Origin: Eledone cirrhosa | Lineage: Eukaryota | Assembly: GCA_964016885.1 (NCBI GenBank) | Contig: OZ024741.1 | Location: forward strand, 329,716,001 to 329,780,000 | Direction of reading: 5' to 3' | Length of the DNA stretch: 64,000 nucleotides | The notes under the pieces: generated by a model | Told to the model about the DNA's origin: nothing | The model's database searches: none | Seen by the model: only the letters and a program-made list of their open reading frames with translations | Shown: positions 2,660 through 63,472 of the stretch, piece by piece | How the letters are laid out: each line of letters opens with the position of its first letter | How positions within the stretch are numbered: position 1 is the stretch's first letter | Position numbers and translations under genes: made by a program

Positions 2660-2692
2660 AGAACTGTTTCATTCATATGAAATCATCAGAAC
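2660..2692 (-). ncRNA. Hammerhead ribozyme core, truncated inverted partner of 2694-2732
   Basis: Minus strand reads CUGAUGA-UUUCAUAUGAAU-GAAAC-AGUUCU. The 3' strand of stem I is missing. Confidence 0.5.
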
Positions 2693-2693
2693 G

Positions 2694-2732
2694 TTCCTGA
2701 TGATTTTATACAAAAGAAATAGTTCTGTAGAA
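2694..2732 (+). ncRNA. Type I hammerhead ribozyme (minimal)
   Basis: UUC CUGAUGA UUUU-AUAC-AAAA GAAA U-AGUUCU-GUA^GAA. Stems are weak and AU-rich but the core is complete. Confidence 0.6.
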
Positions 2733-3102
2733 GTCATTTCTATGTACATAATAAGGATGCCCATACTCTATGAATGTATTGAGTATCTTGGGAATCATAT
2801 ATATATATATATTAGTATAGTATAGGTGATTCAGCGATTTACTATTGGTGATACCAATATGAGCACTCGAGGCACAGGTAGGGTGTGTATGGTAAAGAAA
2901 AGTGATGAAGTTTTGTTTATATCTTTTTATTGATTATCAACCTATTACATACATTTCATAGATGATTAGCTCAAGGCCTCCTATGGATGCACTGGACATG
3001 ACGCAAGCATTGAACTGCTCATTAGACTTGGTAAAACAACAAAGCAAACTCAGTACAATAAAGAAATATATTAGATTAGCACTTGATATAGTAGGAAAAG
3101 AG

Positions 3103-3138
3103 TCCCTACGTTTCAGACACTAGTCCTTCATCAGAAGA
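3103..3138 (-). ncRNA. Minimal type I hammerhead ribozyme (Penelope-type, family A)
   Basis: UCUU CUGAUGA A GGAC-UAGU-GUCU GAAAC GUA^GGGA, with palindromic stem III (ACGU). Homologous flanks occur at 21640-21745 and 49929-50030. Confidence 0.85.
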
Positions 3139-3304
3139 TAGAATGAGAAATAAAAGATGAAATAGAAAGTGAGAAGAGGAAGAAACAAAGAAATTCCCCC
3201 CCCCCCCAAAAAAAAACCTGTATTCAGTATATACATACATATAAATATATATACAAACGCATGCATATATATATATATATATATATATATATATATATAT
3301 ACTG

Positions 3305-3570
3305 GTGAGGTACTTAGCTAAAAGTAAGCCACTATATCTAACATTTGTAGACCTGGAAAAGGCCTTTTACAGGGTCCCACGCTCTGTAATCTGGTGGGCA
3401 CTTAGGAAGCTAGGTGTAGACAAATGGCTTGTGAGGACCATGCAGGTTTTGTATAAAGAAGTAACAAGTAAGGTGACAATTGGTAACTACAATGATGAAA
3501 TTGAAGTGCAGGTGAGTGTCTACCAGGCTCAGTCCTCAGTCCACTCGTTTATTATTGTCCTTCAGGCCAT
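3305..3570 (+). mobile_element. RTE LINE RT fragment between (TA)n tracts
   Basis: Translates YLAKSKPLYLTFVDLEKAFYRVPR, paralogous to the 3624 ORF. Confidence 0.85.
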
Positions 3571-3610
3571 ATATATATATATATATATATATATATATAT
3601 ATATATATAT

Positions 3611-62014: not shown

Positions 62015-62205
62015 CCGAATTGGTGTGGAAAAGACAGGTACACATGTTGTTGAGGTGTGTTTCACTCCGTCAATACATCGATATGTCCAGCTCCTGGGTG
62101 TTTTGTTATTCCTCCGAGGAACTGGAATCGAATTTCAGCGTCATATATATATATATATATATTACACAGACACACATACTTACGCATAAGGGTTTTATTC
62201 ACAGT

Positions 62206-62312
62206 GCTGACAATTGTTTCGTTGATCTGGTAGGTCTAGAGCTCGTTAATCACTTGATGTTGCGTCAATCGATCTCTAATACTTTGTTTACAACCAGTCA
62301 ATTCATCGGAGC
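62206..62312 (-). ncRNA. Hammerhead mirror copy (CCGAUGA variant)
   Basis: GCU CCGAUGA AUUGA...UCAAC GAAAC-AAUU-GUC^AGC. Confidence 0.6.
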
Positions 62313-62394
62313 GTGTGGATGTGAGGATAATACGCAAGGCATGGCTTTTATAGAAGAGTGGTGCATGCCTTGCGTATTATCTTCACATCCACAC

Positions 62395-62484
62395 GCTCTG
62401 ATGAATTGACTGGTTGTAAACAAAGTATTGGAGATCGATTGATGCAACATCTAGACCTACCAAATCAACGAAACAATTGTCAGC
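62395..62484 (+). ncRNA. Type I hammerhead ribozyme, extended stem II
   Basis: GCU CUGAUGA AUUGA...UCAAC GAAAC-AAUU-GUC^AGC, with palindromic stem III (ACAAUUGU). Confidence 0.8.
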
Positions 62485-62553
62485 ACTGTGAATAAAGCCC
62501 TTATTGTAAAGCCAACCACGTTACTCTTCTTTCTTGAAATATATATATATATA

Positions 62554-62901
62554 TCATCATCATCATCATCATCATCATTTTATGTCCACTTTTCCCTGCT
62601 TGCAAGGGTGGGACGGGAACTGATTCTGGCTTGATTTCTACAGCTGGATGCCCTTCCTAACACCAACCTCATTTACAGTGAGTGCTGGGTGCTTTTTTTG
62701 CTGTGGCACCTCCACGACCACTTTGCAGTGGAATGATAGGGACCCCATTCCCTATCATCTCATTTCTACAGCTGAGTAAACTGGAGCAATGTGAAATAAA
62801 GTGTCTTGCTCAAGGAAACAACACATCACCCGGTCTGAGAATTGAACTCACAACCTTTCGATTGCAAGGCCAATGCTCTAACCACTAAGCCATGTGCCTC
62901 C
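62554..62901 (-). mobile_element. SINE family 1
   Basis: Near-identical to 368-706. Confidence 0.85.
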
Positions 62902-63162
62902 ATTATGTATATATATATATATATATATATATGTATATATATGTATATATATATATATATATATATGTATATATATATATATATATATATGTATATATAT
63001 ATATATATATATATATATGTATATATATGTAGATAAATCTACCAAGAGTTTACGGTAGTGTCCAATCCGTATGAAGAACTCAATGTATTCCAGATATCAT
63101 GGAAAGAAGAGATGTAATGAAAATCCACTTTCGGTGAAAGATAAACGGTATACAGAGTCAAG

Positions 63163-63472
63163 ATAAAATATTAAACAAATAATGAACAAACAATTCCTTA
63201 TATTAAACAAAAAAAGTTCACTATTTAACGATCGTTTCTAGGGTATATATGTGTTATAATTGGTATGCATATTCTGAAGACGGCGTATATATGTGTTAGG
63301 TATGTATATTTAATCTTGATAATTTGTATAATTTTGTATAATTTTGTACATAGATCTGTTGAATATGCATACCAATTATAACACATATATACCCTAGAAA
63401 CGATCGTTAAATAGTGAACTTTTTTTGTTTAATATAAGGAATTGTTTGTTCATTATTTGTTTAATATTTTAT
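63163..63472. repeat. Inverted repeat (arms 63163-63274 and 63361-63472) whose junction lies at a hammerhead core
   Basis: Apparently perfect arms of about 112 bp. The left arm ends in ATTC directly at CTGAAGA. Confidence 0.88.
63270..63413 (+). ncRNA. Type I hammerhead ribozyme with about 115-nt stem II hairpin
   Basis: CUGAAGA C GGC-GUAUAUAUGUGUUA...UAACACAUAUAUAC-CCUA GAAAC-GAUC-GUU^AAAU. Same family as 7694. Confidence 0.7.

Follow-up and report, generated by a model that had tools for sequence, protein, structure and literature searches.

Type I hammerhead motifs at TA repeats of Eledone cirrhosa are very probably the 3′ ends of Penelope-like elements and of short non-coding tandem units

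Here we describe a population of type I hammerhead ribozyme motifs in a 64,000-nt stretch of Eledone cirrhosa DNA (the window; contig OZ024741.1 329716001-329780000, G000:C2:329716001-329780000, from a 3.0 Gb assembly). The window motifs are not chance matches; they belong to real families of type I hammerhead repeats. Very probably, they are the hammerhead-bearing 3′ ends of Penelope-like element (PLE) families, together with short non-coding tandem units, left behind by 5′-truncated insertions into (TA)n arrays. The window is AT-rich, crowded with such arrays, and also contains RTE-type LINEs (long interspersed nuclear elements) as well as a probable C2H2 zinc-finger exon.

Both strands of the window together hold 33 CUGANGA motifs. 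Because it demanded perfect pairing where stem II begins, a first descriptor overlooked most families and was replaced. A strict three-stem descriptor that tolerates a mismatch at the base of stem II gave three matches in the window and 0.00 in 100 shuffles, and a looser three-stem descriptor gave six, against a mean of 0.43 (maximum 2) in 60 block-wise dinucleotide shuffles. The shuffled control proposed in an earlier, first-pass annotation of this DNA thus came out in favour of the motifs. One looser match, 42816(+), sits within the coding stretch of an RTE LINE and was dropped as chance. Rfam reported no hammerhead in the window at its gathering threshold, and no hammerhead family was among the 150 listed out of 255 weak matches. 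The genome was searched with 12 stretches of the window, each of which returned 246-2,776 first-look candidates, with 40 scored per search. All fetched loci together yielded 356 descriptor matches, which form 44 clusters, 28 of them with at least two members. BLAST against the library of genomic hammerhead copies assigned 17 window fragments to 10 genome-wide families. The features of the window are as follows (pLTR, pseudo-long terminal repeat; SINE, short interspersed nuclear element):

2655..2696, minus strand: family G, inverted 5′ arm, truncated in stem III; keeps CUGAUGA (2689), stem II and GAAA; abuts (TA)6
2690..2797, plus strand: family G, sense arm with weak stems; core 2697, cleavage predicted after 2729; (TA)7 at the end
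3051..3166, minus strand: family A (putative Neptune-type 3′ end), decayed minimal hammerhead; core 3134, cleavage predicted after 3107; stem I weak, 3′ end without TA
7691..7895, plus strand: family I; core 7698, GAAA 7804, stem II of ~100 nt with damaged base, palindromic stem III; flanked by two TA arrays
21627..21745, minus strand: family A fragment, 5′-truncated within the core; a tRNA-like SINE follows
44056..44270, minus strand: family B, tailed inverted arm; core 44206, cleavage predicted after 44151; strict test passed
44271..44469, plus strand: family B, sense arm; core 44346, putative cut site 44411, first stem I pair broken; (TA)4 at the end
44868..45027, minus strand: doubtful family M, inverted-duplication repeat with (TA)n at the end; at most a hammerhead 3′ half, not counted
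49821..50079, plus strand: family A, minimal hammerhead; core 49933, with C in place of U16.1; TA-rich microsatellite at the end
51624..52324, minus strand: family E, non-coding unit of 469 nt in 1.5 head-to-tail copies; full core 51891, with a stem III mismatch
52241-52324, minus strand (within the preceding feature): family E, upstream truncated copy; GAAA-stem III-UH retained
52475..52659, plus strand: family F, old (other copies ~75% identical); core 52542, cleavage predicted after 52617; stem II domain 57 nt; strict test passed
55296..55929, minus strand: family H, inverted arm, doubtful ribozyme; ~715-nt non-coding tandem unit, palindromic stem III, degenerate 5′ core
56004..56538, plus strand: family H, sense arm; (TA)9 at the end
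56557..56663, minus strand: family K fragment, truncated inside a 60-nt stem II, CUGAGGA gone; same (TA)9 as family H
61908..62129, minus strand: family J; core 62009, U4 changed to C, stem III shortened; (TA)6 at the end
62162..62363, minus strand: family C (putative Hydra-type 3′ end), short-tailed inverted arm; C in place of U4 in the core
62364..62539, plus strand: family C, sense arm; core 62398, cleavage predicted after 62481; 65-nt stem II domain (most copies have 82 nt); strict test passed; (TA)7 at the end
63030..63274, minus strand: family D, inverted arm; hammerhead 3′ half and 137-nt tail; (TA)n at the end
63270..63472, plus strand: family D, sense arm (pLTR); core 63274, 116-nt stem II domain, predicted cut after 63408; stem I 5′ strand lost at the inversion junction; long TA array at the end

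The first-pass annotation had listed about 20 hammerheads at 19 sites. Sixteen of the 19 fall into the 10 families, and 44873 and 55602/56159 could not be confirmed; one site, the family D inverted arm at 63189-63274(-), lies beyond its list. Nine sites had been called intact, and all nine keep CUGANGA, GAAA and UH. Only 44206(-), 52542(+) and 62398(+), however, pass the strict test, 2697(+) and 3134(-) pass the looser test only, and in the remaining four a stem adjoining the core is damaged: 3 nt are lost at the base of stem II at 7698, the first stem I pair is mismatched at 44346, 51891 has a mismatch within stem III, and at 63274 the inverted arm has replaced the 5′ strand of stem I. Truncations or mutations affect most window copies, which are predicted not to fold into a ribozyme as monomers. 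The 10 window families are in keeping with the claim of at least eight families that differ in their stems but keep core and pairing. That nearly all elements are bounded by (TA)n is too strong, because the link is on the 3′ side: (TA)4 or longer occurs within 250 nt downstream of the cut site at 13 of the 17 sites, compared with 30% of random window positions. As for the proposed density (about 1 per 3 kb), the 17 fragments in 64 kb amount to 1 per 3.8 kb, and this count includes dead fragments.

Genome-wide abundance was estimated from 60 evenly chosen 10-kb stretches (600 kb), placed at round coordinates rather than at random. They contain 39 strict motifs, five of them from one tandem locus, against 0.1 in 10 shuffles. 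The contig-length-weighted density of 0.71 per 10 kb (bootstrap 0.43-1.04) suggests ~2x10^5 intact-core hammerheads in the assembly (1.3-3.1x10^5), in at least 44 families, by extrapolation from 0.02% of its length. When decayed pieces of the 28 multi-member families are included, the 600 kb hold 89 fragments, so that the window count is about twice the average density.

Motif parts that a search did not demand were nevertheless recovered. Stem III is self-complementary in 26/29 matches (20 purely Watson-Crick) versus 1/6 in 20 shuffles, in line with the palindromic stem III of the first-pass annotation; stem I is present in 34/43 matches versus 0/13 in shuffles, and stem II in 34/38 versus 0/1. 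Freeing the core positions one at a time added 0-1 matches to 34, except for 5 at A6. Across families the stems are wholly different and their pairing is kept. (TA)5 occurs within 200 nt downstream of 30 of the 39 sampled motifs and upstream of 6, compared with 18% of random positions, which supports the proposed insertion at TA microsatellites. By setting, 23/39 motifs were classed as solo, 9/39 as inverted-only and 7/39 as tandem. Hydra-type coding fragments occur in 8 of the 60 stretches.

The clearest link to a mobile element is provided by family D, which appears to be a young, intact Hydra-clade PLE. Genomic copies 100% identical to the window copy neighbour an 813-aa open reading frame (ORF) in a 6,643-nt head-to-tail unit (element L218:508-6643, G000:C3:116657000 onward) with a 3.7-kb microsatellite-like 3′ untranslated region (UTR). 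All 67 scored matches to this ORF are 99-100% identical and stop-free, and at least 67 near-identical open frames suggest current activity. The single ORF would encode a reverse transcriptase (RT) with YRDD, followed by a GIY-YIG endonuclease at the C terminus (IVY..YIG). Alignment with 21 relatives displays the Hydra motifs RVRWR, SDKTG, a CNCRNKTNC linker and CRLC..E..LN..CNH, and by eye the protein is colinear with Hydra-1_Obim (PMC8557442 supplement). Relatives in the database number 103, with identities of up to 48%. Further Hydra-clade traits are the hammerhead in a pLTR, the (TA)n target and the tandem and inverted insertions. The hammerhead lies 3.7 kb past the stop codon, with its predicted cut site 353 nt before the next ATG. 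The minimum free energy fold of the master copy is a three-way junction (z -7.4); consensus folding of the family D copies yielded neither stem I nor stem III. Family D has two 3′ ends, at cut+64 and cut+201 (5 and 9 distinct ends), and each arm of the window insertion uses one of them. In a search for RNA records, none was listed for family D; contigs from four runs contain related sequence and carry no information on ends, strand or level.

Family C arms lead into a Hydra-type endonuclease end 1.0-1.1 kb upstream, which lies inside the inverted arms. Family A leads into a putative Neptune-type endonuclease in 2 of the 30 loci long enough to show one; this assignment is based on a CxxC linker, YIGQTG, H..H and GLN in the broken frames of these two loci, with no intact ORF. 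Families E and H, in turn, are non-coding tandem units that resemble retrozymes. The 468-469-nt unit of family E (34% GC, longest Met-ORF 37 aa) is tandem in three loci and, folded as a circle, has a z of -3.5. In family H, canonical CUGAGGA is retained by 1 of 27 copies, and the 10-nt stem III palindrome carries a double compensatory change in 4 of 27. This family (L279-L303) is a successful tandem family, which may form mixed dimers with intact partners or may be a decaying ribozyme. Three further families have tandem periods of 310-311, 471-472 and 522 nt. For family M (44873), no CUGANGA was seen in 15/15 loci viewed, which leaves at most a 3′ half.

Family membership and the coding links of A, C and D thus bear out the earlier attribution to type I hammerheads of Penelope-type retroelements. 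They speak against a separate hidden non-coding system, because D and C run into Hydra RT and GIY-YIG coding sequence and A into the Neptune-type endonuclease. Non-autonomous retrozymes had also been proposed, and among the window families non-coding tandem units were shown for E and H only. The description as minimal hammerheads fits some families but not the 8 of 10 window families with stem II domains of 26-116 nt. The suggested genome-wide check found the core conserved in the family library, with thin covariation within families.

The way these families insert would fit reverse transcription that starts internally and often stops early. Their 3′ ends are fixed and meet (TA)n, and their 5′ ends are variable. 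Same-family inverted pairs face outward in 46 cases and inward in 2 (overlapping loci counted twice). In families C and D the arms lie between a few bases and 6.6 kb apart, with RT coding sequence enclosed, and in family B the inversion junctions vary by copy and a tail is present on one arm only. Only 1 of the 89 fragments in the 600-kb sample has its 5′ end within 3 nt of the cut site, and none of 19 informative family D loci within 10 nt (11 of 30 reached the locus edge). A role of ribozyme cleavage in defining where inserted copies begin at their 5′ side is therefore unsupported, as no 5′ ends pile up at the cut site. Families B and G as fixed travelling palindromes were likewise rejected, since junctions differ between copies. 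This pattern resembles published Penelope insertions, which comprise partial tandems with a tail and inverted copies. For an anole element, the available part of Frangieh et al. describes internal initiation of reverse transcription at two sites, dispensability of cleavage for in vitro insertion, and 5′ ends without a pile-up at the cut site.

We propose that the GIY-YIG endonuclease would nick (TA)n and that reverse transcription would start ~30-260 nt downstream of the ribozyme, from one or two internal positions that are fixed. It would often halt early or fold back, giving solo ends and inverted pairs. Because it would start just downstream of the ribozyme, even the shortest insertion would contain a hammerhead, and motif density would reflect priming geometry, not selection on the copies. 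The fixed 3′ ends of B, D, E, G, H and M coincide with a short in-element TA/TAT stretch that follows a T run. This placement suggests that priming uses microhomology to the nicked (TA)n target. Cutting by the ribozyme is predicted to require a dimer, formed through the palindromic stem III within tandem transcripts from master copies. The inserted RNA is likely uncut, given the lack of a 5′-end pile-up at the cut site, and most genomic copies, including most in the window, are likely dead passengers. The short tandem units E and H were likely mobilised by the same enzymes. As a separate observation, in the best-matching copies of family G (window 2690-2697, L188-L216) the sense arm starts ~7 nt before the core, at the stem I 5′ strand, which is an inversion-junction hot spot. 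Family B has a similar hot spot, located at a hairpin ~95 nt upstream; both samples are query-biased.

Several results weigh against this interpretation. None of the 8 window copies folded as monomers gave a three-way junction. An ORF link is not established for families B, F, G, I, J and K, and single matches near them may be neighbours. Within-family covariation amounts to one compensated pair in family D and to three in another family, where they are not above shuffle by pair count (154 of 500) and are above it by cell count. The clade of family D rests on motifs: its RT and endonuclease were assigned by motifs and by-eye comparison because a Pfam search of the protein returned no family and a PDB sequence search no solved relative. 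The genome-wide total comes from a small fraction of the assembly, and self-cleavage at the predicted UH sites, like expression, is a prediction.

These points bear on four other explanations. Most motifs could be non-autonomous retrozymes that spread as self-cleaved circular RNAs, with coding Penelope elements a minority. This would fit the non-coding tandem periods of 310-311, 468-472, 522 and ~715 nt in five families, the tandem setting of 7/39 sampled motifs, the circular fold of family E and the six window families without a proven ORF. We nevertheless consider it unlikely, since solo and inverted-only settings (23/39 and 9/39) prevail, families A, C and D lead into coding sequence, tailed partial tandems are the Penelope insertion pattern, and Hydra-type coding fragments recur through the sampled stretches. 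Somewhat less probable still is that the hammerheads are functionless even in master copies and persist as mere conserved 3′ structures for recognition by the reverse transcriptase. Inserted copies do not start at the cut site, the anole element inserted in vitro without cleavage (according to the part of that study available), family H spread despite its degenerate core, and a very long stem II would remove the usual loop-loop contact. On the other hand, 44 families whose stems are unrelated retain the catalytic core, hardly any matches are gained when core positions are freed (0-1 over 34, 5 at A6), and a palindromic stem III is kept in many different sequences.

That B, G, C, D and H are miniature inverted-repeat DNA transposons containing the motif by accident is suggested by the common fold-back shape of many B and G copies. 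It is largely refuted, and very improbable, given central junctions that vary by copy, unequal arms, a one-sided tail, and the range of C/D arm spacing with RT coding sequence between the arms. Chance matches in AT-rich repetitive DNA account for 42816 and would agree with the silence of Rfam at its gathering threshold. As a general explanation chance has a negligible probability and is refuted by the 39 versus 0.1 strict matches in 600 kb, as well as by the recovery of stem I (34/43 versus 0/13) and of the stem III palindrome when neither was required. We therefore retain 5′-truncated PLE insertions, with their non-coding derivatives, as the explanation of the motifs.

Penelope-type hammerheads are a known kind; their scale and the long stem II appear to be new here. 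Hydra elements with hammerheads and (TA)n targeting have been published, including the octopus family Hydra-1_Obim (PMC8557442), and other groundwork on hammerhead PLEs and non-autonomous retrozymes is found in PMC4209133, PMC7229834 and, in its available part, bioRxiv 10.64898/2026.07.22.740005. Like family D, Hydra-clade PLEs (Craig et al. [quoted passage not shown] By the descriptive traits given there, they are generally <3 kb with a 12-26 nt spacer and a 30-40 bp tail, whereas family D has 6.64 kb (>2x), a 3.7-kb 3′ UTR, a 116-nt stem II domain and a 137-nt tail. Family A resembles Neptune-clade PLEs in its CxxC-type linker and an endonuclease with C-C-H-H pattern, seen in broken frames only, and its hammerhead is a textbook case of the minimal metazoan PLE hammerheads of Cervera and de la Pena (2014, PMC4209133). 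These are also type I, with palindromic stem III and an extra base after A9, and occur as many families per genome, mostly in solo copies and some inverted pairs. They number ~2,000-9,000 motifs per genome, compared with the ~2x10^5 extrapolated here, and in most families here both the stem III palindrome (6-10 nt) and stem II are longer. Non-LTR retrozymes, as far as described in PMC7229834 and the available part of Li et al. 2026 (bioRxiv 10.64898/2026.07.22.740005), consist, like E and four other families, of short non-coding tandem units that are low in GC and contain one type I hammerhead apiece, and have been proposed there as non-autonomous Penelope derivatives. Here, by contrast, they form mostly 1.5-copy partial tandems with a tail at (TA)n.

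The TA arrays are landing sites common to hammerhead elements and SINEs: a tRNA-like SINE family lies in the same arrays at 363-722, 21288-21642, 44460-44868 and 62557-62917, often abutting hammerhead elements. RTE-type LINEs at 3615-5588(+), 52967-54769(+) and 42427-43800(+) have a PHD-like zinc finger directly after the RT domain in their ORF, and other LINE fragments with RT and endonuclease-like frames lie at 45586-46659(-) and 15396-16831(-). A 498-aa open frame with six C2H2 zinc fingers at 35203-36699(-) is probably a host gene exon. Two near-perfect palindromes, 60402-60653 (252 bp) and 7131-7222 (92 bp), are without a hammerhead core.

The spacer between CUGANGA and GAAA is >=40 nt in 22 of the 44 families and >=60 nt in 14, with a maximum of 116 nt. 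Among stem II domains of >=35 nt, 18 of 23 fold better than shuffles at z -2 or below. By copy number long forms are rarer (8/39 sampled motifs >=40 nt, 23/39 >26 nt), and only 14/39 have a spacer of <=17 nt. Published Hydra hammerheads have 12-26 nt at this position, and two spike-moss PLE-X motifs of ~50 nt were flagged as deviant (PMC8557442 file S2); the 'long helix II' of a 2026 virus paper is 6-8 bp in the part available. Motif counts in the accessible portions of the literature are ~5,000 for mussel, 235 for giant squid and 126,247 for axolotl, the last in two families compared with at least 44 here. In its available portion, a 2026 Octopus vulgaris repeat annotation reports recently active Penelope families and does not mention ribozymes. 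Our literature search found no report of such a hammerhead load or of 40-116-nt stem II domains in cephalopods.

Schistosome Sm-alpha repeats may match the density seen here, and for this reason we do not claim the densest load known. A bolder proposal, which we regard as doubtful, is that ~2x10^5 intact-core hammerheads would place this genome among the densest loads known, and that half of the families grew 40-116-nt stem II domains as a working part, which may be a landing site for the element protein or translation factors and so a protein-gated switch. If true, the switch could, for example, open cap-independent translation of the family D ORF 353 nt past the cut. Outward-facing inverted pairs would give long double-stranded RNA, if transcribed. 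Rfam and short-spacer descriptors overlook the long-stem forms, so the number of ribozymes in such genomes is probably greatly underestimated. The role of the hammerhead in Penelope-like elements is still an open question in the field. This genome combines an apparently intact, recently amplified element with a large ribozyme, dozens of variants and non-coding derivatives, which would make that role directly testable.

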